Shown here piece after piece: positions 42,363-60,110 of a DNA stretch of 64,000 nucleotides. The translations under genes and the position numbers were made by a program. Each line of letters opens with the position of its first letter. The stretch's first letter is position 1. This stretch comes from Bryobacterales bacterium (GTDB taxonomy: Bacteria > Acidobacteriota > Terriglobia > Bryobacterales > Bryobacteraceae), in NCBI GenBank assembly GCA_963772905.1, contig CAVYZD010000001.1, positions 926,144-990,143 on the forward strand, read 5' to 3'. The notes beneath the pieces are model-generated. The model saw nothing but the letters and a program-made list of their open reading frames with translations. It was not told the DNA's origin and searched no databases.

Positions 42363-43346
42363 ATGAATCCGGCCAAACTTCCCGTCTTCTTAAAGGGTGG
42401 AAACCGGCTCCTCACGGCGCCGGAGTTCCAGCATCTGGCGAACGTGCCGCCTGAAATCGAGTGGTTCAAGAACATCGACAATCACCATACCAAGCGGGCC
42501 TATGAGAAGGCGGTCAAGGACTTCATGCTTTTCGCCGGCATCGACCGCCCCGAGAAATTCCGCCTGGTCACCCGATCTCATGTGATCGCCTGGCGCGACG
42601 ACCTCACTGAACGGGCTAACCGAAACGGCAAAAAGCTGGGCAAGACCACCGTCCGGCACCGGCTGACGGCCCTTTCAGCGCTGTACAACTACCTCTGCGA
42701 CCGGAACGCCGTTCTGCATAATCCATGCAGGGGCGTAAAGCGGCCGACTGTCATACGAAACACCGGCAGGACGCCGGCCATCGCCGATCGCCAGGCGCGC
42801 GGACTGCTCGGCGCTCCCAAAGAAGAAACCCTGAAGGGCAAACGGGATCGCGCCATTCTGGCCACGCTTCTTTATCACGGCCTCCGCCGCAGCGAATTAT
42901 GCAAGCTGAGGGTTCAGGATTACCGGTTTCAGATCGAGGGCGTTCCCCATCTGTACGTGCAAGGCAAGGGCGATAAGGAGCGCTACGTCCGGCTACACGA
43001 TTTCGCGGCCGACCTCATTGATGACTATCTCGACGCCGCGGGGCATGGAGACGATGCAGACGGAGCCCTGTTCCGGCCGCTTCGTAATAGCCGGGGTGGC
43101 GGTAGGGAGAAAGCGATTACGGCCGACGGCGTGTACAAACTGGTGCAACACTACGCGTCTGTGCTTGGGGTGAGGATAAGAACGCATTCATTGCGCGCCA
43201 CTGCGGCGACAAACGCTCTCAGCCACAACGCGGACATCGCCAAGGTCCAGGAGTGGCTCGGTCACTCGAATATCTCGACAACACGCCTTTACGACAAGCG
43301 TAACTCCCGGCCCGAAGACAGCCCGACGGTTAAGGTTGCGTATTAA
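42363..43346 (+). CDS. tyrosine recombinase (phage integrase family, XerC/D-like size)
   Basis: ...[14 protein letters not shown]..., [25 protein letters not shown] provide the R, HxxR, H and Y residues. Confidence 0.9.
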
Positions 43347-43477: not shown

Positions 43478-45044
43478 GTGGCGGATCAATCAATTCCACT
43501 CAGCGTCTATTTGCTGCGGCCAGATCGATTGGCTTCGTTCGAAGCCGCCCTTTCTGTCGCTACAGCGGCATTGCCGCTAGCTCCCCCTTTGGACGGCTAT
43601 GCTATTCCGTTGCCATCTGGCGAGCGTACGCCAGAGTGGGTACCGGTTATCCAGTCCGCTCTTCAAAGCCCCAACGCGTTTTCACTCGTCGGTCAATCCC
43701 CTGCCGCATTAGTAGTCGTTCGCGAGGATGGCAAGACCTTCGTCCTGAGCTTCGGGCATGCCTGGTCAAAACTAGACGATGATTGGCTGGAGCCCGATTT
43801 TGGCCGCCGCATCGCTCTCAACTTGATCCCGCCGGACCAACTCGTCGAGATTCACGTCGAACAGATATTTGCCAAATGGCATGTCGCGCGCGAACGCGCG
43901 CCTCGGGCATCTTCGGTCCGTGAATTCGCGGTACAGTTCGACCGCGACCTCGTTGCCAGCGTCGAAGGCATCCCTTCCGACAGTCAGTTTGGGAAAAAGA
44001 TTCGTGGAGCCACGAGCCTGCGAGTGGAGATCCCCTTCTCGGAAGCTCACGGATCTCCTTACGACTTCGATCACGTATTACAAGAGCGACTGCTACAAGA
44101 AGCATTGGCCGGAAATAGACAACATGAAGGTGGTCACCGACGAAGCCGTAATGACGGACCTGGAGACCCATCTCGACGCCGAACTAAAGTCCGGACAAGC
44201 GCAAAAAAAGCTGGTCATGTTCACGCCGGCCCACCGCCGCACTGACACGTGGACAGTTGATTCCTACGTTTTCGGCAGGATGTCGAAATCACCGCCCGCA
44301 AGCCCTTACCTCCTGGTGGACAGCTGGCTCAATTACTTGCGCAAAAGCAACCGGGAACCGAGCGTAGCGGCAGCAAAAGATTCCTTGGTCCATCTTATGG
44401 ATGACAGTAAGGAGCCTGTAGACAAATGTACGGCCTTTCAATGCTTCGGGTATGAACTATCAGTTGGACCGCGCCAATACATCCTCTCCTCTGGAATCTG
44501 GTACGAAGTAGCCATCGACTTCCTGAGCAAGGTAAATAAAACCGCGTCGAAGATCCCTCCTCCAAAGATCGCCCTGCCAGCATGGAACGGCGTCGACAGC
44601 GAAGGGGAGTTCAATTTAAAGTGCGGCAAGGCAAATGGATTCCTCGGCTTCGACGCAAAGAACCTTATGTTCGGCGGCGGGCAATCTAAATTCGAATTCT
44701 GCGACGTCCTTCACATGAAAAGCAAAACTCTGTTCTTCGCCAAGATTCCGTCGAAATCCAGTGGCATGAGTCATCTCGTCGAGCAAGTACGCCGAACCGC
44801 CGAACTTCTTTTCAGCGCCGATGCCGCCTATCGCAAGGAACTCACGAAGGTTTTTAAGCAACACTTCAAAGGCGTCGATACCGAGTGGCTAAAGACGAGA
44901 CCGAAACACGGCGATTGGAACATCTGTCTAGTTTCTCTCGGCAGGCCGGCAATGAAATTGCCGTTCTTCGCCCGATGCAGCCTCGTCAAGGTCTACACCG
45001 ACCTCCGCGAACAAGGACACGATATCTCTTTTCTCGCGGTATAG
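43478..45044 (+). pseudogene. TIGR04141/DUF6119-like sporadically distributed protein, frameshifted
   Basis: Two overlapping frames (43478-44245 and 43869-45044) carry successive parts of one protein. The junction is near 44038-44046, where ...LRVEIPFS switches to KLTDLLTTSITYYKSDCYKKHWPEIDN... Confidence 0.65.
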
Positions 45045-45146: not shown

Positions 45147-45410
45147 TCAGTGCTTCGTGAACTCGGATGGCTTTCGGTGCTCGCGGATTTGCGAAAAACT
45201 GACGGCGACCGAGGATCCCAACTCCACCTTGCCGCCGTAGTCGTTCAACGGTTCGTTGTCGAGCGTGCCAATGATCAGTTTCCTGCTGGCGTCGCAGACC
45301 TCGACTCGGACCCACATCCACTCGCCCACGCCGGTGGCCTCGTCCGGAAAATCAACTTTGACGTAATCACCGCGCTCGTAGACTGGCACTTTGCCTCCAC
45401 CATTCCTCAT
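45147..45410 (-). CDS. small protein, DUF2314-like (tentative)
   Basis: The ATG at 45410 follows AGGGGAAG. GEWMWVRVEVCD...GTLDNEPL resembles the DUF2314 pattern. Confidence 0.4.
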   Translation of the reverse strand: MRNGGGKVPVYERGDYVKVDFPDEATGVGEWMWVRVEVCDASRKLIIGTLDNEPLNDYGGKVELGSSVAVSFSQIREHRKPSEFTKH

Positions 45411-45517
45411 TTTACTTCCCCTGAGAACGCGTCGCACTGTGACGCCGCGACTCTCGATGAGCTTCTAACACATTTATGACCCAGGCCTACTGAAGACTTT
45501 CCGGACAAACTCACCCT

Positions 45518-46243
45518 TTACCGGGAATCGGGTTCAGCCCCGCCGCCTTCCGGGGGAGCATAGGGAGCCAATCGCTCCGGTTGGGGCGTAATTTTGCCGA
45601 GATGCGTGTCAAAAATATGATCGATTTCGCAGCCGCCTGCATGGTCGCGAAGAGCTTGCCACCTGTATGGAAGCGATGCCGGATCGCCGATATCCGTCCA
45701 GCCCCTCGGGAATCCGCAGTCCTCTTCCGCGTCTTCGATCGTTTTTCCGATCGAGGCGAAGTACTCCGCTGTATATCTCTGCCGCCCGTCGATGATAGGA
45801 CCGAACCGGAGATAACAATCGAACACGACGGACAGCAGCATACGGAAATACTCCCTGCATGCGGTCACCACGTCATCGCCGGGAACATCGGAAACCTCGG
45901 CCGTCGGCTGGAACCAGTACACGACCGGCTGGCCCGGCGCTGCGTAACCGCCGGACACAAGATTGTCTCCGATATGCTGATTTACGGTTCGAAACTGGTG
46001 GAAAAACCGGGCGATGCGATCGGCGCGAAGCTGGTCCTGTTCCGCAGCGTACCAATTCGCGAAGCCGTCGGCATCGCCCAACACCGCCTGCAGCGCGAAC
46101 GTGATCGAACGGGCGGATGCGACGAACGCCCCTGCATAGCAGCGGGCGGCAAAGAAGTCGAAACCGCTTGCCCCAAGTTTAACCAGAAAGAATTCTGCCT
46201 CAGCGACCTTGTGATCTACGAGGCTAAATGATCGTTGTGACAT
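45518..46243 (-). CDS. hypothetical protein (241 aa)
   Basis: Long ORF 33 nt downstream of the nuclease-like gene on the same strand. No motif was recognised. Confidence 0.5.
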   Translation of the reverse strand: MSQRSFSLVDHKVAEAEFFLVKLGASGFDFFAARCYAGAFVASARSITFALQAVLGDADGFANWYAAEQDQLRADRIARFFHQFRTVNQHIGDNLVSGGYAAPGQPVVYWFQPTAEVSDVPGDDVVTACREYFRMLLSVVFDCYLRFGPIIDGRQRYTAEYFASIGKTIEDAEEDCGFPRGWTDIGDPASLPYRWQALRDHAGGCEIDHIFDTHLGKITPQPERLAPYAPPEGGGAEPDSR

Positions 46244-46276: not shown

Positions 46277-46996
46277 TCAATTTGCCAGCCACTTCGCGTA
46301 AGCGCGAGTGTCGATCATCGGCACCGTGCCGCTGCTTTGAAGCCGCGCAATAAGTTCGAAAAGGAAAGCTGTGGCCGGCTTGCCTTGATCGGTAATCGTG
46401 AAGCATCCGGACGGATCGCAGGCGAATGTTCCATGAGCCGCAACGCAGCCGAGGTCAAGCCGTCCGTCGGCATTCTTGTTCAGCGCCGCGACCAACGCGT
46501 CGCCGAGCGGTGGCTTCCAATCGCTGTCAAATGCCAGGATGCCGCCGAGAATATAAGGGAGCGCTTTCGGCTCAAACGTTCCGCCGGCGTGTGGGATCGG
46601 CAGGCTGGTTCTATAAAGACGGCGCACGCTCGCCACCTTGCGCTGCGCGTATTCAACCTGTGCAGCGTTGATAACCTGCTTCGCTTCAAATGCAGCGTAG
46701 ACGCTCTCGGCGGGGACGATCAGCTGTTCCTCATAGTTGAATATAAGCGGCGAGTACTGCTGATCGAACACCACGATATCAATCTGGTCGCTGAAAACGC
46801 CGTTGCTGTCGACGACATAGGCTTTCTCCGCCCGGTAGCGCAGCGGCATATACTTCTGCAACAATTCGCGCCATACATGCTCGCTCGCATCTCCTTTGGC
46901 GCCCGGATGGCCGAATGTTTCGCGGGCGGCGGCCAGCCGACGCTCAATGTCATCATGAAGTCCGGCAAGAAGCTTGGGTAAAGACCATGTGCTCAT
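46277..46996 (-). CDS. PD-(D/E)xK-type nuclease-fold protein (DUF6602-like)
   Basis: DQIDIVVFD ... VPAESVYAAFEAKQ gives a D...ExK arrangement. The ATG overlaps the stop of the upstream nucleotidyltransferase gene as ATGA. Confidence 0.6.
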   Translation of the reverse strand: MSTWSLPKLLAGLHDDIERRLAAARETFGHPGAKGDASEHVWRELLQKYMPLRYRAEKAYVVDSNGVFSDQIDIVVFDQQYSPLIFNYEEQLIVPAESVYAAFEAKQVINAAQVEYAQRKVASVRRLYRTSLPIPHAGGTFEPKALPYILGGILAFDSDWKPPLGDALVAALNKNADGRLDLGCVAAHGTFACDPSGCFTITDQGKPATAFLFELIARLQSSGTVPMIDTRAYAKWLAN

Positions 46997-47754
46997 ACGA
47001 CAATCTGGCTCCAGTTGGTTGCTCGAAGGGCCTGTTCGGCAGCGGCCTTGATCTTGGCCCGTTCAGCGGCGGTGAGGTCATCCGAGATGATGTTATTTGT
47101 GTTGGCGGGGTCAACTACCCGCGCGTTGGGAAACGTGTCGCGTAGATACTCGAACACCTTCCACACATTGCCGGACAAGGTTCCGAAATACTGCCCGGCC
47201 AGGGCGTTGATAACGGTCAACTCCAGATAGAATGACGGGAATTCGAGCCCCTTCTGGTCACGCCAGAGCTTGATAATCCTGATCTCGTTTGTCCGTCCGC
47301 TTCCGCTTACATGCGCGATATGCGTCGCCACGTTTGTCTTGGTCCAGGTATCGGCCTTGCGCCGGTAGAGGCTGTGATCCGTCGCGAATAGGTCTTGAAG
47401 TTTGGCTGGCACGAGGTCAACGCGGTAGCCGTTCACCCGGATGCCGACCGAGACGTTCTGACGCTTCGGGTTGTATCCTCTTTCGCTCATCGTATTGAAG
47501 AGCTTGTTGTAGACCTCCCGGAGCGTTTCGCCGGTCTGGTCGGACAACGAAATGAACAGGTCGATATCGGTTCCAGTCACGTTCGCGGTTCCCTTGGCAA
47601 AGGACCCGCTCGGACTTACGCTCACCAGCTTGTCGCCGGCCCAGGCCGCGATCACCGGCTGAATCGTGGCCTGAACACCACGCACCGGGGAGAGTATCCC
47701 CGTATTGACGGCCTCCCGGTTCAGTATGTTCTGGAGGTATGCGTCGGCTGTCAT
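46993..47754 (-). CDS. minimal Pol-beta-fold nucleotidyltransferase (SMODS/CD-NTase-like)
   Basis: SGSFAKGT provides the G[GS] motif and DIDLFISL the DxD. A third acidic residue lies in YRVDLVPA. The C-terminal helical part reads EIRIIKLWRDQKGLEFPSFYLELTVINAL. Confidence 0.7.
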   Translation of the reverse strand: MTADAYLQNILNREAVNTGILSPVRGVQATIQPVIAAWAGDKLVSVSPSGSFAKGTANVTGTDIDLFISLSDQTGETLREVYNKLFNTMSERGYNPKRQNVSVGIRVNGYRVDLVPAKLQDLFATDHSLYRRKADTWTKTNVATHIAHVSGSGRTNEIRIIKLWRDQKGLEFPSFYLELTVINALAGQYFGTLSGNVWKVFEYLRDTFPNARVVDPANTNNIISDDLTAAERAKIKAAAEQALRATNWSQIVV

Positions 47755-47777
47755 TTCGCCCTCTTCGCCTTTCGCAC

Positions 47778-50075
47778 CTATGCCGCCTCGATCAGGCGGA
47801 CCTCGCCGTTGCAGGACTCGATAGCCGACGTAACGATCCGGCGAATTTCTCCCAAGAACGCCGCCGACGGTTCCGTCATCACCGCATCGGGCACCGGCGC
47901 CGCTGCATCATAGATTCCGTGTATGGCGTTAGCCCGGCGGAAGGTCGATCCCGCTCCCCGCGAGCCCGGACCATCGTAGGCCGCGCGCCAATCCGCCAAG
48001 TGATGCTCGACGAGCCGCCGCACGACGAGATCGCGCAACGCGACCTCGATCACCTGCCGAATGCGGTCGATGGTCCTCTGGCCTTCGTCTTCGTCTTCCG
48101 GCTCGCGCGTCCAGCTGATGGGATTATTCAGAAACCGCGAAATCGATTCCCGCAGTTGGGTCGCTAGGTCCGCGATCGGCCGAAGGGTATCGTATTCGTC
48201 GTCAAGCTCGCCCGCGATCCGGCGGTTTAAGGCCTTAACACGCGTCCAATGCTCCTTGCGAAAACCCTCGTAAGTGCCGAGGCCGAGGCGGGCGAGCCAC
48301 GGCCCTTGAAACTTGCTGACGGCATCTTGCACGGCAAAACCGACGCCGGTCGGGTCGTAAACGGGCCGCGCCTCGGCGGGCGGCGGCGGCAGTATGGCTT
48401 GGCGGAAGAAATCAACCATCTCCGCAAGCTGTGATCGCATGTATTCCGCCGCCCGCGCCGGAAGCTTCGTCAGATGCCGGTCCACTCCGCCGAGCATGAA
48501 GCAGCGAGGGTCGATTCCGCGCTCGATTGCATTCACCACGGAGACGCCGAGAACGTCCCGCAGGCTGGAGAGCGCATTCAGAACCGACGCCATGACATGC
48601 GCGCGCTTATCGGCGAATTTTTGGAAGTTCTGACCCTTGATCTGATCGAAGTGGGTAAAGGCTACGGCGAGTTTCCGGTGATGCCCGCTCGATGCCACAG
48701 CCCTCAATACCGAAAGCGGCGCCGCCTGCATCGGCTGCTGCGCGTTATCGACGAGCAGAATTACGTCAACCTGCGCGAACCGGCGGGTCACATGGGTTGT
48801 GACGCTCGACGATGAGTCCGGGGTGTGTCCAAGGCCCTGCCCGTCAATCAGCACCAGCCGGGATTGGTCCTCCAGAAAGTCGGGGAACAATGGCCCGCGC
48901 ACGCGGATGCCGTCCACCAGCGGCGTCAGCAGCCGCCCAAATTGAGGCCAGTAATTGCTCGAAAACCACCGAATGTGCCGTATAAACTCATCACGGTCAG
49001 CTGATTCGAACACCCACAATTCCGGCCAGCCGGACGGCCGCCGCCGCAGCTCGCCGGCGGAAATGAAGTCGAACCGGCCGCGCACATCTTCGAGAATGTC
49101 CTGCACCAACTCATGAAAGGCTTCTTCCTGCGTCAGGTAGAGATCGAAGTTCTCCTCGATCAGTTGCTGCGCAACATCACGATCAGGCCCAGCCTCCCTG
49201 GGATCGACCCCCAGATCTTCATGCAGCTTGGCTTCGACCGCCCTGCTCAAATCGCCGATGCGCTCCAGGTAACGCGTAATCGCTTCGCGATTAGCGGCGC
49301 GCTCCGCTTCGGTCAGCGCGACCTCGTCGTCAAGGACCGCGGTTGAATCGCCGGCGTCGTCGAACGACATCTCGTCCTGTTCGTCGCCTCCTCCGTTCGC
49401 GCGCCAGCCGCCGAGAATATAGCTCAGCCGGAACTTCTGATCGCGATGGCTTAGGAACCGGTCCGCGATTTTGTCCAGCGGGGCTCTTTCAAGAATCGCA
49501 AGCGCGGCGTCAATGATGCATTCCTCGATGTTCGCCTGAGTCTGGAACTCCGTAAAGAAGGTGACCGCGGCGGCAAAGTCGCCGTCGGTCTGAATAACCT
49601 CGATATCGGCTATGGTCGTCTTGGCGGGCGCCGTGGACGGGAAGCGGTCCTCATCCGGATCGGAGCCGATCAGCTGCCGGAGAAGCGAAGTTTTGCCCGC
49701 CCCCGTGGTTCCGACGAACAGGACGTTGGGGTAGCCCTCATCCTTATTAGGAAGCCTGATGCTTGCTTCGCGCAGAGCTTCCGGGTCGTCGCGCCCCGCC
49801 TGGATTTCGTCGTAGAACGCTTCGACAACCGGCTTGGAAAACCGCATCTCGGCTTCGGACCGTTTTGCAGCGTTCCACCACGACTGATCGCCCAAAATCA
49901 CGTTCATTTCGGCGACCATCACCTCGGCTTCCGTCGCGTCCGACGTGCCTAAGCCGCGACGCATCTTCAGTCCGGCGCGGCCGCGGGCATCATTGCGAAG
50001 AGGATGCCGGAAGCTAACGGACCATCCAGGACGGTTCGATCGGGTTTTGCTGGCAGTGTAAGTTGCTTTGTTCAT
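47778..50075 (-). CDS. large P-loop GTPase-like protein (765 aa)
   Basis: G1 is GTTGAGKTS, G3 is LIDGQGLGH and a G4-like motif is AFTHFDQ. About 270 aa are inserted between G1 and G3. The start is set at the ATG 6 nt after GAGGA. Confidence 0.7.
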   Translation of the reverse strand: MNKATYTASKTRSNRPGWSVSFRHPLRNDARGRAGLKMRRGLGTSDATEAEVMVAEMNVILGDQSWWNAAKRSEAEMRFSKPVVEAFYDEIQAGRDDPEALREASIRLPNKDEGYPNVLFVGTTGAGKTSLLRQLIGSDPDEDRFPSTAPAKTTIADIEVIQTDGDFAAAVTFFTEFQTQANIEECIIDAALAILERAPLDKIADRFLSHRDQKFRLSYILGGWRANGGGDEQDEMSFDDAGDSTAVLDDEVALTEAERAANREAITRYLERIGDLSRAVEAKLHEDLGVDPREAGPDRDVAQQLIEENFDLYLTQEEAFHELVQDILEDVRGRFDFISAGELRRRPSGWPELWVFESADRDEFIRHIRWFSSNYWPQFGRLLTPLVDGIRVRGPLFPDFLEDQSRLVLIDGQGLGHTPDSSSSVTTHVTRRFAQVDVILLVDNAQQPMQAAPLSVLRAVASSGHHRKLAVAFTHFDQIKGQNFQKFADKRAHVMASVLNALSSLRDVLGVSVVNAIERGIDPRCFMLGGVDRHLTKLPARAAEYMRSQLAEMVDFFRQAILPPPPAEARPVYDPTGVGFAVQDAVSKFQGPWLARLGLGTYEGFRKEHWTRVKALNRRIAGELDDEYDTLRPIADLATQLRESISRFLNNPISWTREPEDEDEGQRTIDRIRQVIEVALRDLVVRRLVEHHLADWRAAYDGPGSRGAGSTFRRANAIHGIYDAAAPVPDAVMTEPSAAFLGEIRRIVTSAIESCNGEVRLIEAA

Positions 50076-50232
50076 GTTGTTCCTCGTTGTACCAGACCAG
50101 TATCGGGTCAACACTTAGCAGATGTCAAGTGAATTCTGGAACAACACGCTACAACATTGCTGGATGGCGCTGAACAGTGTCTTCTATCGAACTGATACTT
50201 AAGCGCTTATGAACACTTAACCAATTGCGCAT

Positions 50233-51052
50233 CTACTCGGTTTGGTCGCCCCTCACAAATGAGGCGCGCCACGTCTCGGGCCTGAGGCTGACCGCTTTTT
50301 CCAGCGGCGGCGCGATTGTGAAGATCCGCGGCTCCGTCGAGAACAGATGAACGCGGTAGATGCGCCAATCATTGGGTCGGTCAGTCGCCACAGCGCGTTC
50401 GGTGCGGGTGAGGAAAAAAGGCGTGCGCGCCGATCCGTTTGTGGTCTTTATCTCCAGGAGTCGCTCGCGACCGTTCGGCTCGAAGGACAGCACATCGTAC
50501 CCCGCTCCATCGCCCTCCTCCGCTGAAATCCAGCGAATCTTATGGGCGAGGTCCGGGCGGTCGGTTCTACTGAGACGAAGCTTCTCGACCTCGATCACGA
50601 ACTCCTCGCCCGCCCGACCGAGCAATCGGTTCCGGTGGTCCCTTTCCACCGGATCGAATTTCTTCACCAACCTTCGCAAACCCGGTGGAATAGTTTCTTC
50701 GGCAAGCACAGGCGGAGCGACAAAAATCTCCTCGTCCGCGGCAAGCAGAGGAGGCGGAGCAGCGACAGCCTTGAGAAAGCCAGGGTGCTTGCTCAGGTAG
50801 CGGTCGATCGCGTCGAAAATGGCGTTTTGATAGTTCCTCTTTGGAATGTACCCACGAATCCACGGCATCCCCAACTCATCCAGCACGGCGGAGATGTTCT
50901 GATGTTTGAATTCGACGGACCGGTGCGTCCGGCCGATCCGCTCCATAAGGGCCTTGCTGTGGTGAGATTTGACGTACGGCCTGCCTGCGAGGTCCGCTTC
51001 GAGCATCGCAAAATAATCTGCGACAATCGCGTCGAGTTCGTCGTCCTCCCAG
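50233..51052 (-). pseudogene. DUF3883-domain protein gene interrupted by IS3-family element
   Basis: The C-terminus GYDVLSFEPNGRERLLEIKTTNGSARTPFFLTRTERAVA...WRIYRV matches the DUF3883 pattern. The first 11 codons (MANEAKIGRNW) lie at 52488-52456 on the other side of the IS. Confidence 0.8.
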
Positions 51053-51153
51053 TGACCTGCCTCGGTTTTCTCTACCAAAGATAATTGAGACGCTTCCGTC
51101 TAATTTAACTCCTCTTCTGCCATCCCGTCGGAGCCGCCCGTCGCAATCACCTC

Positions 51154-52089
51154 TCATGCAGAACGGCACGGAGCGGTCAAGGGCGCGCCAATCGGCGCGG
51201 CGTCAGCGAACCCTTGATCGCGAGTACCGTTCTGCGACTCCGACTCTGCTGGCGGGCGGCGACCAGGCGGGATGGCAGTAACCTCCATCCTGTTGGTGAG
51301 CTTTGAGCAGATTTCGGCGTATTCTTCCGGTGTTCGGTACGCCAGACTGCTATGCGGACGCTCGGCGTTGTAGTCCATCCGCCATCGCTCGATCTTTTCC
51401 TTCGCATCGGCAAGCGTCGTGAACCAGTGATGATTCAAACACTCGTCACGAAGCCGACCATTAAAGCTCTCCACGTGTCCGTTCTGCATCGGCCGTCCGG
51501 GCTGAATGTGGATCAGCCGAATACCTCGTTCCTCGCACCAGACCAGGAAGTGGCGACTGGTGAACTCCGGGCCGTTGTCGCAGCGAATTACTTCCGGTGT
51601 TCCTCGCCGGCTGATGATCCACTCCAGCACGCGCGTCACTCGTCTGCTTGACAGCCCCGTATCCACCTCGATCGCCGGACACTCCCGCGTGAAGCTGTCA
51701 ACGACCGTCAGCATGCGCAGCCCTCGCCCAGTAGCCAGTCCATCGGCCACAAAATCGATGGCCCATTCCTGATTGGCCCGGCTCAACAAAGCTCCCGCCG
51801 GCGCCGGCCGCACTAATCGTTTCCGCTTCAGCCGCCGCACCGCCAGATGCTCCTGGCTGTACACGCGATACACCCGTTGCGGACTAGCTCGGCATCCTCG
51901 CCGTTCCAGGAGTGCACACAAACGCCGATATCCGAAGCGCGGCTTCTGCCGCGCCAGTGCGATTAGCTCGCGACGCAGCTCCGCGTTGTGGTCCGGCCGC
52001 GGCCGATATCGGTAACTGCTTCGATCCATCGCCAGCAGCTTGCAGGCTTCGCGTTCCGTGTAATGAAACTCGCTCATCACCAACGCCAC
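51154..52089 (-). CDS. IS3-family transposase OrfB (rve/DDE integrase core; expressed as OrfAB by -1 frameshift)
   Basis: ...WAIDFVADGL...RCDNGPEFTS...MQNGHVESFNGRLRDE. The -1 frame from the A6 run reads straight into this ORF. Confidence 0.9.
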   Translation of the reverse strand: MALVMSEFHYTEREACKLLAMDRSSYRYRPRPDHNAELRRELIALARQKPRFGYRRLCALLERRGCRASPQRVYRVYSQEHLAVRRLKRKRLVRPAPAGALLSRANQEWAIDFVADGLATGRGLRMLTVVDSFTRECPAIEVDTGLSSRRVTRVLEWIISRRGTPEVIRCDNGPEFTSRHFLVWCEERGIRLIHIQPGRPMQNGHVESFNGRLRDECLNHHWFTTLADAKEKIERWRMDYNAERPHSSLAYRTPEEYAEICSKLTNRMEVTAIPPGRRPPAESESQNGTRDQGFADAAPIGAPLTAPCRSA

Positions 52090-52103
52090 ATCCTGCCTTC
52101 GAC

Positions 52104-52406
52104 CTACAAGCTCCAGCCGTTTTTTCGAATCACCGCTTTCAGCGCTTCTTTGTCCAGGCTGAGATCGGCGACCATGTGCTTCAGCCGGCGGTTTTCGTCT
52201 TCCAGCTCCTTCAAACGGCGTGCTTCATTCACTTCCATGCCGCCGTACTTGCTCTTCCACGTGTAGATCGTCGCCTCGCTGACGCCTAGCTCCCGCGCGA
52301 CTTCTTTCACTGTCCGGCCTGCTTCCACCTGCTTCAGCACGCCGATGATTTGTTCTTCTGTGTGTTTGCCCTTTTTCATTCGAAGCTCCTTTTCTTCGTC
52401 TTTCAC
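52104..52406 (-). CDS. IS3-family transposase OrfA
   Basis: KKGKHTEEQIIGVLKQVEAGRTVKEVARELGVSEATIYTWKSKY is followed by a leucine zipper. The slippery A_AAA_AAC motif lies at about 52119-52126 (complement). Confidence 0.9.
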   Translation of the reverse strand: MKDEEKELRMKKGKHTEEQIIGVLKQVEAGRTVKEVARELGVSEATIYTWKSKYGGMEVNEARRLKELEDENRRLKHMVADLSLDKEALKAVIRKNGWSL

Positions 52407-52646
52407 TGCTGGAGCTTCTCAATTATGGCTGGAGGAGATTATCGAGGGCAGGTCACCAGTTCCTGCCGATTTTTGCTTCGTTAGCCATGATTACACGGTG
52501 CTCTACCCTAAACGAACATTATCCTCGGATTCGCGGGCAAGGCGGTCTTGCCCGTTTTTGCTACATTTCCACATGAGACTAAACCGTTCTCTGTAAGCAG
52601 CACAATGGCGGCTGCAGTAGCATTAAGGGGCCGCACTACAATAGAG

Positions 52647-53114
52647 ATGCAATCAATGAAGGCCCCGTCTTTTGTTGGCCGAAAGCCGTCATCCAAAGCC
52701 GCCTCACAATCAAAGCGGATGAACCGAAGTGTCGACACCGCGCATGAAAAGCTCCTGCGCCAAGCTTTGTGGAGACACGGTCTTCGTTATCGGAAGAATC
52801 TCGCGACGCTTCCCGGTAAGCCAGACATCGTATTCGGCCCTGCACGCGTCGCGGTTTTCTGCGACGGCGATTTCTGGCACGGCAGAAACTGGCAGCGGCT
52901 CTCGAGACAACTCAGGAAGCGAGCCAACGCCGATTACTGGTGCCAAAAGATTCGGTCCAACATGCTCCGTGACCGCCGCATCACAACGCTCCTCCAGAAG
53001 CAAAACTGGTTCGTCCTTCGGCTCTGGGAGCGGGATATTCTCGCAGATCCTGAGCGAGCAGCTTGCCATATCCAAAACGTCGTTGCCGAACGATCCGCAC
53101 GCCGGCGGCTGTAG
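52647..53114 (+). CDS. vsr: very short patch repair endonuclease
   Basis: ...LRQALWRHGLRYRKN...LPGKPDIVFGPARVAVFCDGDFWHG...YWCQKIRSNMLRDR...LRLWE. The start was chosen to give about 155 aa and is uncertain (52605-52656). Confidence 0.85.
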   Translation: MQSMKAPSFVGRKPSSKAASQSKRMNRSVDTAHEKLLRQALWRHGLRYRKNLATLPGKPDIVFGPARVAVFCDGDFWHGRNWQRLSRQLRKRANADYWCQKIRSNMLRDRRITTLLQKQNWFVLRLWERDILADPERAACHIQNVVAERSARRRL

Positions 53115-53115
53115 C

Positions 53116-53979
53116 CTACGCGCGGTGCTCCTCTATTTGATCGTTGCGCCAAGTCTCAAGAGCACTCTTCAACCCAACGTCCTTTACGCCGTGCGGAAGG
53201 TGTCTTATCATGCGCACACGATCGAAGACCAGGCCTTTCACCTCTCGCGCCACATCGTGCCATTCATCGTCCGTGATTACACACGGAACGGCAAACCCGG
53301 CGATAGGGTCAGAAGCCCAATGAATATACTGAGTCCATGATGCCATGGGCAGTTCGTGCGTCTTATCTCGCCAATCGTGGCCGGCCGCACATTGAGAAAG
53401 AACTACGAGTTGCCCCGATCGACGACTAGCATAGTCTGGCTCCGCAAATGGCAGCCAAGAAATGACATCTACGCCCCGATCTTTGTATTGGGTGGCGGGT
53501 GCCTCGACAAAACGCTCTCGAAGCAGCTCACACGCCTGCTTAACTCTCTCCCCAATAGCTTTCTGCACGTTCGGCAGCGCCGGCCAGCCAAAAACAAACA
53601 CCTCCCCATTTATGTGGTGCGCGATCGCTTCAGCGGACATCCGCTCAAATAGCTTGGGGTCGGCGCCTGTCTGGGCCGAAGCACCATAGAGTGAGAAGAA
53701 CAAGCAAGTTTCATACTCTAGCCTGCCGTCCTTGACGTCATCTCGCCGCACAATCAGGTCCCCCTGGATTTCAAAGAATGGCGAAGAGTACAATCCTGCC
53801 CGCCGACGTAAGTGTTGCCAGATGTCAGATAGATAGGCCTCGCTTGGCTCGTCTCCACTGGCATCCCGAATGATCGCCGCCACGCGCGACTTTGAGAACG
53901 CCGCTTCGCCCAAACTCAATTCGAGTTCTATCCAGTCGGCTACGCGCTCGGCATCATCCGCATCGTCGAGGGCTAACAT
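53116..53979 (-). CDS. hypothetical protein (287 aa), coupled to ParB-like gene
   Basis: The ORF starts 2 nt after the upstream stop. No motif was recognised. Confidence 0.55.
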   Translation of the reverse strand: MLALDDADDAERVADWIELELSLGEAAFSKSRVAAIIRDASGDEPSEAYLSDIWQHLRRRAGLYSSPFFEIQGDLIVRRDDVKDGRLEYETCLFFSLYGASAQTGADPKLFERMSAEAIAHHINGEVFVFGWPALPNVQKAIGERVKQACELLRERFVEAPATQYKDRGVDVISWLPFAEPDYASRRSGQLVVLSQCAAGHDWRDKTHELPMASWTQYIHWASDPIAGFAVPCVITDDEWHDVAREVKGLVFDRVRMIRHLPHGVKDVGLKSALETWRNDQIEEHRA

Positions 53980-53981
53980 CG

Positions 53982-55157
53982 TTATTCCTTAACAGTCCTT
54001 AGTACGCGTCCCGCCGTATCGACACATTTCTCCGCTTCTGCTATTACTTCTGCCGTCTTATGGCGATGAACTACACCTAGCGCCTTTTCTAACTTGGTGC
54101 TCGCCGTTCCCAACAGTTTGCGTACCATGGTCTCCTCGCCGTCCGACATTTCATACGCCTCACGAAGATCACGATTGTTGCGTAAGTACTCAACTGCAGC
54201 CGGGCTGGCGACAACATGCGACAAGTAGTTGGTGATGTCCCTTGATTCCTTAATCACGGGCCGCACCTTGGTTCCCTCCCCATAAATCCACGATAGAAAA
54301 TCTCGAAGGTTCTTCAGGTGCGTCTCTGGGATAGGCTCTTCAAGATCCACCTCGTCCAAAGGAAGAACCTTAGCTTTGTCAGAAGTCTTGGTCGGCTTGG
54401 CCCAGCCGAGAAAGATCTTTATGTTGCGTTGCCCGATTGCGAGGACCATATACGAGAAGTCCTCCTTTGCCCGCGAGATGTCCCAATCAAGATCGGTCCG
54501 TGCCTGTTGGAGGATGAAGTACGACACAGCATTCTTGAGGACACCTTGAGACCTGTCTCCCACTTCCTGCTCGATTTCCTCAATTTTCTTACCCTCATCA
54601 AGCATTTTGGCGATATAGCGAGCCTTAGCATAGCTGTCCCATTTCTTGTTGCCAGTGATGTGCCGGACGCCTAAGTACGGGAGTACTTCCTTCCGCGTCG
54701 GATAAATTATCACTGGCAGTTCGTCCAGGTCCTTGCGTACTGCGGGAGAGATTTCGGGCCAACCGCGAACATGGAGCTTCTTCCGCGTTGTGGCCTCACG
54801 AAGAATTCGGGCAGTGGCCAACCGACGATTTCCCTCAACAACGGTAAACTCAGCGTCAGTGAGGAAGGCTAGATATTCCTTTGAGGGCGTCTCGCCTGTT
54901 TTTGGTTGAAGTTTCTTAGGAAGGTCGTCTGGCACGGCTACAAGTGGCTCTTCATCGAAGTAACCGTTTTGAGCCATAGGCGCCGCAATCTCATCCAAGT
55001 CGAAGTGCTCGTAGAGATGTTGAAGCAATTCGTCCTCATCAGTCCCTTGAATGTTTTCGGGCAGGCGAGGGTTTAGGGGATCCAAATGCAATTGATCGAT
55101 CGGGACGTTTCGGAGCGGTCTCTTGCGCCCCAGGGCTGCTGGTTGTTTGTTAGCCAT
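53982..55157 (-). CDS. ParB/Srx N-terminal-domain protein
   Basis: VPIDQLHLDPLNPRLP and VVEGNRRLATARIL are ParB-box-like blocks. The C-terminus is long and helical. Confidence 0.7.
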   Translation of the reverse strand: MANKQPAALGRKRPLRNVPIDQLHLDPLNPRLPENIQGTDEDELLQHLYEHFDLDEIAAPMAQNGYFDEEPLVAVPDDLPKKLQPKTGETPSKEYLAFLTDAEFTVVEGNRRLATARILREATTRKKLHVRGWPEISPAVRKDLDELPVIIYPTRKEVLPYLGVRHITGNKKWDSYAKARYIAKMLDEGKKIEEIEQEVGDRSQGVLKNAVSYFILQQARTDLDWDISRAKEDFSYMVLAIGQRNIKIFLGWAKPTKTSDKAKVLPLDEVDLEEPIPETHLKNLRDFLSWIYGEGTKVRPVIKESRDITNYLSHVVASPAAVEYLRNNRDLREAYEMSDGEETMVRKLLGTASTKLEKALGVVHRHKTAEVIAEAEKCVDTAGRVLRTVKE

Positions 55158-55285: not shown

Positions 55286-56296
55286 TCATAACTCTCTCCG
55301 AGGAAGCAGCCTCCCAAACGCAGCGTCCGACTCAATCAATGTGTCGGTGCTGACTGCCTCCAACGCAGAAAGATCAGCCCGAAAATGTACGTCGCTCACG
55401 CCAGCGGGCAAAGGACCCCGTATCGCAGGGATTTCACTGAGCCGGTAGAATCTGAGCGAAGATTTAGCGAGTTTAGAGTCGAATGCAAGTGCCAGCGAAT
55501 TCGTCAGGTCCGACCCGAGCGTGCCGGTCACCACATCGTGAAGTTTAAGCACGAGGTCAGGATAGGCTGCGATGCTCGTCTCAATCTCGGCGATGACCGA
55601 ACGCAGCGTGACGCCACCGGGCGATCGCTCGACAAACAATGAAGCCGCAATCGCGACTGTGGCAGGTGGCGGATTGCATTGTTCGTACGAGAAGGTATGC
55701 GCGCGAACACGTCCCGCAGTTGTCTTGACATCCATACGAATGTTGCCATCGGCGAAATCAAAGCGCGCTGTTTCATCTATCCGCCAAGCCGTCACTGCCG
55801 CCGGTGTGCTCTCGCTCATCGATAAGACGTACAACTCGCCGAAGAGACCGTTGACCGAACGTGACGGCGCCTTTTGCAACTTCTGAAAGATAGCTGCCAG
55901 CCTATGGACAGCGCTCGCAATCTCTCGCTGTCTCGGCCTATCGCCGACCATTCCGATGATCGTGTCGCAAACTGAAAGGAAATACCTTGCGGTTTCGGCA
56001 TCGAGAGAGCGACAGCGAACAACCGTGAAAAGGCCGGTCCGCTCGGCTTCCTTGCCTCGCTTAACGTGACACCGAAGCTCGAATTGAACATCGAGATTTT
56101 CCAGCCGAATCGGCGATGAAAGCCGCCCCTGCTCACTCGCGACGACAAGAAGGCAAGCGTGCCCCTCCCGGTCCTTTCCGACGAAGTAGCTTTCGTAGCC
56201 ACGGAGGGGCATTACCGAATAAATCGGCTTATCGAGGTTTTCCCCGGTCGGCGCCGCAAGGCCGTCGAAGATTCCTTCAAGGCGCGCTGCCATCAT
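55286..56296 (-). CDS. PD-(D/E)XK motif protein
   Basis: ...ELYVLS...FDFADGNIRMDVKTT gives a D..D.K arrangement. The ATG at 56296 overlaps the Z1 gene stop as ATGA. Confidence 0.7.
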   Translation of the reverse strand: MMAARLEGIFDGLAAPTGENLDKPIYSVMPLRGYESYFVGKDREGHACLLVVASEQGRLSSPIRLENLDVQFELRCHVKRGKEAERTGLFTVVRCRSLDAETARYFLSVCDTIIGMVGDRPRQREIASAVHRLAAIFQKLQKAPSRSVNGLFGELYVLSMSESTPAAVTAWRIDETARFDFADGNIRMDVKTTAGRVRAHTFSYEQCNPPPATVAIAASLFVERSPGGVTLRSVIAEIETSIAAYPDLVLKLHDVVTGTLGSDLTNSLALAFDSKLAKSSLRFYRLSEIPAIRGPLPAGVSDVHFRADLSALEAVSTDTLIESDAAFGRLLPRREL

Positions 56297-58530
56297 TCGG
56301 CCTGACCCGGCTGGTTCTGATCCAGCCAGCCACGAGCCATCCGAGCGGGCACCCATACCGCGAGCACGGGTACATTCTCCATAATCACTCGTTGGACGCC
56401 GCCCTCTTCTCGCGTCAGATCAAGCGTGTGTATCTGAATTGACACATTGCCATCCTCCCGGATCGCGCTGTCACCCGGATAAACCTCTCCACGACGCTCG
56501 CGGGGCTGTACTGGGGCAGCGCCTTGAAAGAGATTGGTGACCTCTCCGTTCTCGTCAATGCCGCGGCGTCTTCTGGAGGCGGGGCTCATGCGAAACACGG
56601 TACACACTTCGTCGGGATTATCTTCCAGTGCCTTACTCAACTGCAGAAGCAGGCCAGTGTAGCGCTGTGAATCGGTAGTGCCGGTGATGCGCATCCGGAC
56701 GAGTAATCGCTCTATGGCGTCGCGGAGTGGAAAATCTTCGCACACCTGATGCCTCTGAATGTCGGTGCGAGCCGGGTGCCCGTCATTATCGACAAATTGA
56801 AGACCCTGGATGAAACCGGTTACGGCATCACGGTTAGCCCGGACAACACTGTCAGACGATAGAACCACGCGGGGAGTGACCCAGTCATCTGAGAAACGGC
56901 CCCGCATGAAATCGAACTCAAGCACGCTATTCCGGCACGGCTGCAGCGCTGTATCCAACACAAAGGCTCTCTTCCACTCGTTTAGCGACCGGCCGTTGTC
57001 CTGAAACTCGCTTAATTGGCTGCGGATATCCTCTTCATGCTCCACGTAATTCTGGAATGCCGTTACTGTCCCCTGCTCCAGGTACACCCGGCAGTAACCG
57101 AGGTATCGTCTCTTGTACCCGAAGAAGCGTGCGCGCTGCTGTATGGTATCGGCGTTCCCCACTCCAATTCCGCGCGGCATATAGGTGACAGTGAGGCCTT
57201 CAACTGTGAAGCCGCGGTCCATTGCCTGCCCGCCCACCAATATCCAGCCGTAGGCGCTACGCCAATCAACTTCAGGAGTACGCCCTCCTACAGCGTTCAC
57301 CTCCATGAGCCGCGTATTCCGAAACGCAAATCGGAAAGAAGGAACAAGCTCATCAAACGCGGGAAGACCTGCTCTAACTGTCGCGGCTAGGTCGGTATAA
57401 GCTTCGCGGAACTCTTCGATCAACTCCTGCTTATCCGCATCGTCATCACGGAGATTCAGGATACGCTTCCACTCTTCAAAAATGTCCCGGACCCAGTTGT
57501 AGTATTCCCGATGCTGCGCAGTCCTGTGCGATGGGTGAACCAACATTGAGCGGTTCCCGGTATTCCGGCCCGCTTGTATTCCTGCGGTTACACCGACCAT
57601 GAAAACCTTGAGCGCTTCCAGGAGCGATTCCGGAGGCTCGTTCAGCGGATTGGCATTGGTTGGAACGTCCTGAGGTGGAATGACGCGCGCCAATCCGCCG
57701 TTGTCCGCAAAAAACTCCCGGCCACCGACATAGTCCGCGCCCGGATCGAGCACCTGGACAAAGTTCGGCGACAGGGAATCAATAATACTGATCAGGAGCG
57801 GCGCCTGTGGTGTCGCGGTGTATTGCAGGTAGGTCTGGTTCGGCAATTCCTGACGTAACTCCATGAGGCAGCGGTACGTCGTGCTTTCCTGGCCTTGCGC
57901 GACCTCGGTGTTCAGGCTCGCCTGGTCCGCCTCGTCGTCAATGATCAGCACCGGCGTGGCCTGCATTCCGACGGCACGAACGAGATCTCTGAGGTTCTGC
58001 AGGCGGCGATGATTCTTCAGAACAGTAATGAGGATCGTCTTCTTGAATTCTTCCGGTGTGCTGTCGTCCCGCCAATCGTCCAAAACATCGCGAATGGCTT
58101 GGACCGTAGGATCGTCATCGCCAGGATTCTGAAATTGAATCCACCGCCTCTCGCGGCCAGGCTCATCCAGTCTCAAGTCCCGACGCAGCCGCCCGGTAGA
58201 TTGCTCAAAGAGCGGGTTGGATGTGCCGGCAACGACAATCACAACATGGAAGGCGTTGTCGCGGGCTAATGCGGCAACCGTCTCAAAAGACATCGTCTTG
58301 CCGCTTTGAACGTAGCCAACCACGAGCCCGGTCTCCTGCCCGGCCGGCGCAGTGGGCGGTGTTCCTTTCGCAAGGATCGAGATCGCTGCTTCGCGGACGC
58401 CGTCTCGGCTGGCTTCAGGAACTACCGTCTGTAGAAACTCAAGCCCCTCTGGGCCAACAGTCGGTACCCAATTGCCCTCGGGTACGCCGTCCGGGTCGGG
58501 CTCTACAATGATTTGATCTCCATCTGCCAT
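56293..58530 (-). CDS. Z1-domain P-loop/helicase-like protein
   Basis: Walker A is GYVQSGKT and the DEAD-like Walker B is LIIDDEADQAS. The large C-terminal region is typical of Z1 proteins from dcm-linked restriction clusters. Confidence 0.8.
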   Translation of the reverse strand: MADGDQIIVEPDPDGVPEGNWVPTVGPEGLEFLQTVVPEASRDGVREAAISILAKGTPPTAPAGQETGLVVGYVQSGKTMSFETVAALARDNAFHVVIVVAGTSNPLFEQSTGRLRRDLRLDEPGRERRWIQFQNPGDDDPTVQAIRDVLDDWRDDSTPEEFKKTILITVLKNHRRLQNLRDLVRAVGMQATPVLIIDDEADQASLNTEVAQGQESTTYRCLMELRQELPNQTYLQYTATPQAPLLISIIDSLSPNFVQVLDPGADYVGGREFFADNGGLARVIPPQDVPTNANPLNEPPESLLEALKVFMVGVTAGIQAGRNTGNRSMLVHPSHRTAQHREYYNWVRDIFEEWKRILNLRDDDADKQELIEEFREAYTDLAATVRAGLPAFDELVPSFRFAFRNTRLMEVNAVGGRTPEVDWRSAYGWILVGGQAMDRGFTVEGLTVTYMPRGIGVGNADTIQQRARFFGYKRRYLGYCRVYLEQGTVTAFQNYVEHEEDIRSQLSEFQDNGRSLNEWKRAFVLDTALQPCRNSVLEFDFMRGRFSDDWVTPRVVLSSDSVVRANRDAVTGFIQGLQFVDNDGHPARTDIQRHQVCEDFPLRDAIERLLVRMRITGTTDSQRYTGLLLQLSKALEDNPDEVCTVFRMSPASRRRRGIDENGEVTNLFQGAAPVQPRERRGEVYPGDSAIREDGNVSIQIHTLDLTREEGGVQRVIMENVPVLAVWVPARMARGWLDQNQPGQAE

Positions 58531-58547
58531 AGCGTCGTCATCCTATC

Positions 58548-60083: not shown

Positions 60084-60110
60084 TGAGGGTCATCCATCTT
60101 GCAAGATCAG

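Follow-up and report, generated by a model that had tools for sequence, protein, structure and literature searches.

A predicted two-gene CBASS operon behind a putative dynamin-like GTPase gene in a Bryobacterales defence island

Three genes at positions 46,277–50,075 of a 64,000-nucleotide stretch of the Bryobacterales bacterium assembly GCA_963772905.1 (contig CAVYZD010000001.1, positions 926,144 to 990,143; the whole stretch is called the window below) encode a large GTPase, a small nucleotidyltransferase (NTase) and a nuclease. The original prediction, made from the letters alone, took the three for a single undescribed nucleotide-signalling defence system. The analysis presented here favours another reading, with a probability of about 0.85: two independent modules would be juxtaposed in a defence island, namely a Type I CBASS (an antiphage system that signals through cyclic oligonucleotides), formed by the NTase and the nuclease, and a solitary dynamin-like GTPase. 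The three genes have hundreds to thousands of homologues and are real genes, not chance open reading frames (ORFs).

All three lie on the minus strand (Table 1), and the co-directional layout with a 23-nt gap and an ATGA overlap is as first described. The 23-nt spacer between the GTPase stop codon and the start of the NTase (cyclase) gene contains a GAGGG Shine-Dalgarno-like motif, and the stop codon of the cyclase gene overlaps the nuclease start codon as ATGA. The GTPase frame is open further upstream, to a GTG; the ATG start is favoured because homologues have about 765 aa. A sigma-70-like promoter match 5’ of this ATG could drive the GTPase and CBASS genes jointly, and no terminator-like hairpin was found between the GTPase and cyclase genes. 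In this genome the GTPase gene and the CBASS pair are probably co-transcribed.

Table 1. Features of the defence island in the window (positions count from the first letter of the window; minus-strand genes of the trio are given from start to stop)
Feature	Position	Strand	Remarks
Tyrosine recombinase gene	42363-43346		island edge
DUF6119 (TIGR04141-like) gene	43478-45044	+	two overlapping ORFs, profile positions 48-187 and 187-520
orf96	45147-45437	-	96 aa; beyond orf241 on the same strand
orf241	45518-46243	-	241 aa; 34 nt 3’ of the NucC gene
Nuclease (predicted NucC) gene	46996 to 46277	-	239 aa
NTase (predicted cyclase) gene	47754 to 46993	-	253 aa
GTPase-like ORF	50075 to 47778	-	765 aa counted from ATG
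GTPase frame, extended	GTG at 50114	-	open reading back to GTG, 778 aa
Sigma-70-like promoter match	50099-50128	-	TTGACA, 18-nt spacer, GATACT; 10/12 consensus matches
DUF3883/NOV_C gene	50233-51078	-	PADLOC PDC-S36 1.3e-107 (profile positions 4-279 of 280); NOV_C 6e-18
IS3-family element (putative)	51060-52447	-	two-ORF transposase 51154-52406; 35-nt imperfect inverted repeats 51060-51094 and 52413-52447
vsr gene	about 52700-53114	+	with the IS3 element between the 287-aa gene and DUF3883
Gene pair	53116-55157	-	391 aa (PDC-M38A 2e-20; PD-Lambda-5_A-like; ParB-like N-terminus by eye) and 287 aa without family match
DUF4420 (PD-(D/E)xK), Z1 helicase-like, GHKL ATPase and Dcm cytosine methyltransferase cluster	55286-61517	-	

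To judge by its matches, the 253-aa NTase is a genuine CD-NTase (a nucleotidyltransferase of the cGAS/DncV-like kind), the oligonucleotide cyclase of a CBASS. In PADLOC-DB it matches the CBASS model Cyclase PDLC00803 at 1e-97, with residues 1–252 aligned on a 253-position profile, and 16 other CBASS cyclase models match as well. Under their cut-offs are two more matches, Pfam SMODS at 5e-5 and NCBIfam CBASS_cyclase_a at 4.5e-18. Among the sequences of the PDB, the nearest solved structures are BcCdnD (9sa4), EcCdnC (6p80) and PaCdnD (6p82), with E values of about 1e-6 to 1e-3. The GS, DxD and third-Asp motifs that had suggested an SMODS/CD-NTase-type enzyme are well founded, as is that assignment: conservation of G50-S51, D63xD65 and D113 is 97% or higher among 78 homologues, and in an alignment to CdnC, G50-S51, D63/D65 and D113 fall on the catalytic positions.

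The predicted product of the cyclase is most likely 3’,3’,3’-cyclic tri-AMP (cA3), because of both its similarity to CdnC/CdnD and its effector partners. BcCdnD, EcCdnC and PaCdnD are cA3 synthases (PMC13424991; bioRxiv 10.1101/694703), and NucC and TIR-SAVED, the partners of this cyclase and its relatives, are both cA3-responsive effector classes (PMC10419184).

The third gene appears to encode NucC, the cA3-activated DNA endonuclease effector of CBASS. It matches the PADLOC model Effector Endonuclease (NucC) PDLC00745 over its full length at 2.3e-102, the CRISPR-associated NucC model of the same database at 1e-55, and Pfam DUF6602 at 1.5e-30. A phmmer search of the PDB gives the NucC of Pseudomonas aeruginosa (6Q1H) at 2.5e-99, end to end, and that of Escherichia coli MS115-1 (6P7O; Ec below) at 2.6e-96 over residues 1–239. 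The numbering is that of Ec NucC over the first 102 residues, so that active-site and pocket residues can be read directly, with the residue roles taken from bioRxiv 10.1101/694703. The D...ExK nuclease signature of the original prediction is the NucC active site IDx30EAK, which is intact (I72-D73 and E104-A105-K106). The cA3-contacting residues R53, Y81 and T224/V225 (Ec T226/V227) are present. In the gate-loop latch H136 is present and Ec Y141 is F, as in 8 of 48 homologues, so that the aromatic ring is kept.

Together the two genes read as a catalogued two-gene Type I CBASS, a type defined as a cyclase plus one effector (PMC10419184), and their biology is not new. PADLOC assigns both to CBASS (1e-97 for the cyclase and 2e-102 for the nuclease), which removes the ground for an undescribed three-gene system. 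The lack of SAVED, CARF and transmembrane domains had also been read as a non-canonical layout. It does not make the system non-canonical, because NucC binds cA3 directly, in its own trimer pocket, and a cyclase with NucC alone constitutes a Type I CBASS.

The pair is conserved as a pair. Eighty metagenomic loci with cyclase relatives (62–97% identity) were compared, and in 64 of them NucC lies immediately 3’ of the cyclase, with an overlap or a gap of up to about 12 nt; the others are mostly contig ends. NucC is also directly 3’ of the cyclase in a viral locus (L178). Clustering of the neighbours around the 80 loci gave no third family-wide gene beside NucC. No match to Cap2/Cap3, HORMA/TRIP13 or QueC/TGT/OGG was found with Pfam, PADLOC or NCBIfam in the flanking GTPase, orf241, orf96 and DUF3883 genes.

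Of the two same-strand ORFs reported beyond the nuclease gene, the first does have 241 aa, while the second was found as 96 aa rather than 87 aa. Searches of Pfam, PADLOC, NCBIfam and PHROG gave no family match for orf241. The ORF is conserved in L081 alone, is reduced to a 44-nt remnant in L161/L162 and is absent from the other 79 cyclase loci, a distribution that places it outside the CBASS module. A role for orf241 and orf96 as hidden HORMA/TRIP13 or other Cap genes was considered and rejected, given that they have no family matches and are not conserved beside the cyclase.

The closest known counterpart is the Type I CBASS in which a cyclase of clade C/D is joined to NucC, as in the two-gene operon XpCdnC03-NucC, which restricts phages experimentally (bioRxiv 10.1101/2023.05.21.541620). 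Like it, the pair in the window consists of two overlapping genes in a cyclase-effector operon, has a NucC effector with an intact IDx30EAK site and cA3 pocket, and lacks the ancillary genes Cap2/Cap3, HORMA/TRIP13 and QueC/TGT. The differences are on the side of the cyclase, which is unusually short (253 aa), has its own PADLOC cluster (PDLC00803), and is similar to solved CdnC/CdnD only at E of about 1e-6.

The Type III CBASS of E. coli MS115-1 and P. aeruginosa ATCC27853 (CdnC/CdnD-HORMA-TRIP13-NucC) are also similar. Their NucC proteins match the one in the window over the full length (about 1e-96 to 1e-99), CdnC/CdnD are distant relatives of the cyclase, and the expected signal is likewise cA3. 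The window, however, has no HORMA or TRIP13 genes, and its cyclase is about 70 aa shorter. In six related loci (L090, L094, L110, L124, L148 and L149) the short cyclase is the second cyclase of HORMA-cyclase-TIR-SAVED operons. These encode HORMA, a 296-aa cyclase (PDLC00809) and TIR-SAVED (PDLC02012), with the short cyclase last in the operon: a two-cyclase Type III-like CBASS, about 2.7 kb 5’ of the short cyclase, with no TRIP13 in the fetched flank. Soil and peat metagenomes contain the short-cyclase clade in abundance, paired with NucC or with HORMA/TIR-SAVED operons, and the clade is a compact candidate for studying the activation of a minimal cyclase.

On the model of its relatives, the pair would act as follows. 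An infection cue would activate the short CD-NTase, which would convert ATP to a cyclic oligonucleotide, most likely cA3. Bound in the three-fold pocket of the NucC trimer, cA3 would cause two trimers to join as a hexamer, and the hexamer would cut double-stranded DNA without sequence specificity and abort the infection. This mechanism is established in the homologues that NucC matches over its full length (about 1e-96 to 1e-99), and the intact catalytic and ligand-binding residues suggest that it applies here.

The GTPase is of a different kind. Its motifs, G1 GTTGAGKTS (residues 122–130), G3 DGQGLG (411–416) and the G4-like THFD (474–477), are as originally reported and are invariant in 45 homologues of 66–89% identity. 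The wide separation of G1 and G3 is also real, though it is about 280 aa rather than 270 aa. THFD is atypical for G4, which is usually N/TKxD. Against Pfam, NCBIfam and PADLOC the protein gives only sub-threshold P-loop matches (AAA_22, MMR_HSR1, Dynamin_N and LeoA), with Dynamin_N at 18.7 bits against a cut-off of 27, and a sequence search of the PDB returned nothing at E <= 10.

An AlphaFold2 (AF2) model was built from the 45 homologues, with a mean predicted local distance difference test score (pLDDT) of 78.3 and a predicted template modelling score (pTM) of 0.69. In this model the G motifs follow beta-strands, as is expected of G motifs. All 21 Foldseek matches in the PDB at E <= 1e-3 are members of the dynamin superfamily, with template modelling scores (TM-scores) of only about 0.25. 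The top matches are SynDLP, Campylobacter DLP1/2, MxA/MxB, IniA, mitofusin/Fzo1 and EHD4 (E 2.6e-6 to 8e-4); IRG and GIMAP GTPases match more weakly, and structure matches in BFVD are to dynamin-like proteins of giant viruses. The TRAFAC-GTPase-like reading of the original prediction agrees with these matches. Modelled in this way, the GTPase likely belongs to the dynamin superfamily; the assignment is held at that level because the TM-scores are low.

Bacterial and eukaryotic dynamin-like proteins (SynDLP, DLP1/2, IniA, mitofusin/Fzo1 and MxA/MxB) are the only consistent structural matches, with a G domain and a helical stalk or bundle, and the G1 and G3 motifs are conserved in the GTPase. 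Compared to these proteins, it has 8–12% sequence identity, TM-scores of about 0.25, no Dynamin_N match above threshold, THFD at G4, and no transmembrane or paddle-like hydrophobic segment. No 19-mer exceeds 1.3 on the Kyte-Doolittle scale, which speaks against membrane anchoring. The G domain contains a helical insert of about 160 aa, placed after the G1/switch-I region and before G3.

The N-terminus is formed by a basic domain (residues 1–105), modelled as three beta-strands and three helices with a pLDDT of about 80–90. This domain is invariant in family members of 750–770 aa and missing in those of about 640–700 aa, many of which are actinobacterial. An integrase Arm/AP2-like DNA-binding domain was considered for it and found no support: Pfam DUF6538 matches only at E = 0.11, a profile search of the PDB was empty, and a separate AF2 model of the domain (pLDDT 79) gave nothing below E = 0.5 in Foldseek.

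One known defence system offers a comparison. Eleos (formerly ‘Dynamins’, LeoA + LeoBC; bioRxiv 10.1101/2022.05.11.491447) likewise has a large dynamin-superfamily GTPase found beside defence systems, and the predicted fold of the GTPase in the window matches bacterial dynamin-like proteins. The GTPase differs from Eleos in being a single gene rather than a dynamin-like pair, in matching PADLOC LeoA only at E = 0.004 across the P-loop, in its helical G-domain insert of about 160 aa, and in its basic N-terminal domain of about 100 aa without a structural match. A search for Eleos partners gave no LeoB/C match and no second dynamin-like neighbour. The family to which the GTPase belongs has thousands of full-length, unannotated relatives, in 1,239 clusters at 50% identity (E <= 1e-3) or 416 at E <= 1e-30.

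The evidence that separates the GTPase from the CBASS pair comes mainly from other genomes. Ninety-five GTPase loci were surveyed: 79 genomic loci, 14 IMG/VR contigs and two close metagenomic relatives. The 79 (32–85% identity) are scattered patchily over phyla, with members in Acidobacteriota, Alphaproteobacteria, Actinomycetes, Nitrospirota, Planctomycetota, Chloroflexota and others. The cyclase or NucC of the window was found in none of the 95 loci (tblastn and clade hidden Markov models, HMMs). Clade HMMs and phmmer near the GTPases found only a different CBASS, that of locus L001. From the other side, a GTPase homologue is present in two of the 80 cyclase loci, or two of the 42 with more than 1.5 kb of upstream sequence. 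The synteny expected of a three-gene system was thus sought from both sides, and on both counts the expectation failed.

No other partner of the GTPase stands out. When the ORFs within 4 kb were clustered across the 79 loci, no family was common to more than seven loci. Neighbour orientation is variable, and the gene 3’ of the GTPase is often convergent. These surveys used crude ORF calls, and their PADLOC and Pfam figures cover the best 25 families among the matches listed; on that basis, the 149 immediate neighbours include the defence genes MkoA, PD-T4-6 kinases, mad6, GmrSD, AbiEi and Type I restriction-modification (RM), alongside insertion sequence (IS), phage and housekeeping genes. Where the gene 3’ of the GTPase is co-directional elsewhere, it encodes either a methyltransferase of Type I or an enzyme like GmrSD/HEC-06. 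From these neighbourhoods the GTPase appears to be usually a stand-alone gene, a neighbour of the CBASS pair rather than a conserved part of it.

One clade of GTPases, at about 47% identity, lies antisense in prophage structural modules (L171:5821-8082 and L177:6001-8262, both IMG/VR, and L037, L040-L043 and L055). Its members stand between tail-terminator/phrog_6367 (DUF6441) and minor-tail/tape-measure genes, and genes for portal and head protease are close by. Such a placement is typical of a moron, an inserted accessory gene.

The junction between the two modules can be seen in the DNA. When the window is compared with L001, L160 and L163, homology runs up to the GTPase stop codon, at 47777-47779, and no further. 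The GTPases of these three loci have 85%, 90% and 89% amino acid identity to that of the window, in that order, and what follows differs in each: an unrelated gene fills the downstream slot in L160, and Vsr and a Z1-domain gene fill it in L163. In L001, Cyclase PDLC00776, the four-transmembrane (4TM) effector PDLC00721 and Cyclase PDLC00823 follow, with a 1-nt overlap with the GTPase stop codon. L001 belongs to a Terriglobia metagenome-assembled genome; its different CBASS spans L001:10313-12985 and is followed by an E1/ThiF-like gene cluster on the opposite strand. The GTPases without a NucC CBASS are full length, and their amino acid identity of 85–90% is well above their nucleotide identity of 76–81%, which points to purifying selection on the GTPase independent of the CBASS.

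Besides the window, the three genes occur together in L081, which has 84% nucleotide identity to it over 5.5 kb, and in L161/L162, where a 95-nt remnant of DUF3883 and the 44-nt remnant of orf241 are kept. With remnants of the same flanks in common, all trio loci descend from one ancestral arrangement.

A different combination is found at L082:74-4081. It encodes a GTPase (40% identity), a NucC-class effector (39%) of 328 aa that is extended by about 55 aa at its C-terminus, and a short cyclase (78%), and the effector stands upstream of the cyclase, not downstream. The GTPase of L082 is closest to a Dehalococcoidia homologue. The sequences indicate a second, independent juxtaposition of GTPase and CBASS, and the discordant divergence of the three genes (40/39/78%) argues for module shuffling rather than co-evolution.

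The reading as two modules, then, would be that the CBASS pair landed in a variable slot just 3’ of the GTPase stop codon in this lineage and is probably read through from the GTPase promoter, a transcriptional piggy-backing rather than a three-protein system. The GTPase would act alone, plausibly in a mechanochemical, Mx-like defence or as an accessory protein of mobile elements. Several points weigh against this reading. The 23-nt spacing, common strand and absence of a terminator are operon-like in this genome. A CD-NTase system lies directly 3’ of a GTPase homologue in three configurations (the window, L001 and L082), which could hint at a facultative partnership rather than co-localisation in an island. 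In general, no trigger is known for the cyclases of Type I CBASS, which leaves room for an accessory sensor. The product of the cyclase and any phenotype are predictions here, and the crude ORF calls and limited family figures of the neighbourhood surveys count on the same side.

What the GTPase itself does is a separate matter, on which the evidence is more evenly divided. It may not be a defence gene at all: a dispensable dynamin-like protein of membrane or nucleoid remodelling, or a maintenance factor of mobile elements, could hitch-hike in variable regions. This has somewhat less than an even chance. Housekeeping and unclassified genes account for many of its neighbours in the 79 loci, and the protein has no effector domain, transmembrane segment or PADLOC match. 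On the other hand, defence neighbours recur (CBASS three times, Type I RM, GmrSD/HEC-06, MkoA, PD-T4-6 kinases and Vsr/Z1), one clade has the antisense moron position inside prophage tail modules, the distribution across phyla is patchy, and there are precedents for dynamin-like proteins in defence, Eleos LeoA/LeoBC and Mx (bioRxiv 10.1101/2022.05.11.491447). That the family forms a new defence system of one gene, with no relation to CBASS, is a tentative proposal and less likely than not. Even so, an unannotated family of about 1,240 clusters at 50% identity, found in defence islands and in prophage moron positions, is a reasonable candidate for a single-gene defence screen.

An integrated three-gene system, in which the GTPase is the sensor or regulator that activates or licenses the CD-NTase, would add to CBASS a new type whose ancillary protein is dynamin-like and can pair with various cassettes; had it held, a new class of nucleotide-signalling immunity would have followed. 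We consider it improbable. The tight co-directional linkage without a terminator in the window is what such a system would show, as is the retention of the trio in L081 and L161/L162, and other CBASS cassettes lie directly 3’ of GTPase homologues in L001, by a 1-nt overlap, and in L082. However, no CD-NTase lies near the GTPase in at least 92 of about 97 independent loci, and a GTPase is missing from 40 of the 42 cyclase loci whose upstream sequence is long enough. The cyclase-NucC pair is self-sufficient elsewhere (bioRxiv 10.1101/2023.05.21.541620). The divergence within L082 is discordant, the GTPase is under purifying selection where there is no CBASS, and the homology breaks exactly at the GTPase stop codon, in a slot that elsewhere holds RM, GmrSD-like or Vsr/Z1 genes. 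About three CBASS adjacencies per 100 or so GTPase loci is the level expected from co-residence in defence islands.

A looser form of this idea combines the two roles: the GTPase would protect against phage as a new Mx-like protein and could, facultatively, also sense upstream of, or license, any CBASS cassette that occupies the slot behind it. If true, it would amount to a CBASS variant with a GTPase ancillary protein, and it too seems a long shot. Finally, the notion that the NTase is a minimal MNT/KNTase type (an antitoxin or aminoglycoside NTase) and the nuclease a generic restriction-like enzyme, with no cyclic-nucleotide signalling, is consistent with the small size of the NTase (253 aa) and with its Pfam matches (NTP_transf_2 just at threshold, 21.4 bits against 21, and SMODS under cut-off) but has a negligible chance of being right, as the full-length match to a CBASS cyclase model with 16 more behind it, the NCBIfam matches to CBASS cyclases and the CdnC and CdnD matches in the PDB rule out such an identity, the obligate partner is NucC or a HORMA/TIR-SAVED operon, and no HEPN or antitoxin partner is present at the locus.

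The two modules lie in what had been called a defence island, and PADLOC and Pfam matches along it agree. In order, it contains the recombinase, DUF6119, the CBASS pair, the GTPase, PDC-S36/DUF3883, the IS3 element and vsr, the PD-Lambda-5_A/PDC-M38A-like pair, and DUF4420-Z1-GHKL-Dcm. No tRNA gene flanking the island was found near the integrase at 42.4 kb. The split DUF6119 gene looks like a frameshift or pseudogene.

The DUF3883 gene is a candidate single-gene system, PDC-S36, by its profile match, and would be a separate gene of the island. It had been described as inactivated by an IS and 118 bp upstream of the trio. The position is right (118–119 nt, counted from the extended GTPase ORF), and the inactivation is only partly so: the start codon has been replaced, and the ORF is otherwise full length. 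Its orthologues in L001 and L081 start with MADE(T/A)KIGTDW, while the copy in the window starts at a TTG that lies in sequence next to the IS. The element that abuts the gene and replaces its start codon appears to be of the IS3 family, from a reading of its ORF sequences, and is absent from the otherwise collinear L001. There, the 287-aa gene and DUF3883 are contiguous.

The 391-aa/287-aa pair is conserved in L001, collinear with DUF3883 and the GTPase, and may be a two-gene defence candidate. The DUF4420-Z1-GHKL-Dcm cluster has the gene content of a methylase-linked, restriction-like module. Parts of it recur near the same genes elsewhere: a Z1/helicase gene flanks DUF3883 in L081, and Vsr and Z1 flank the GTPase in L163.

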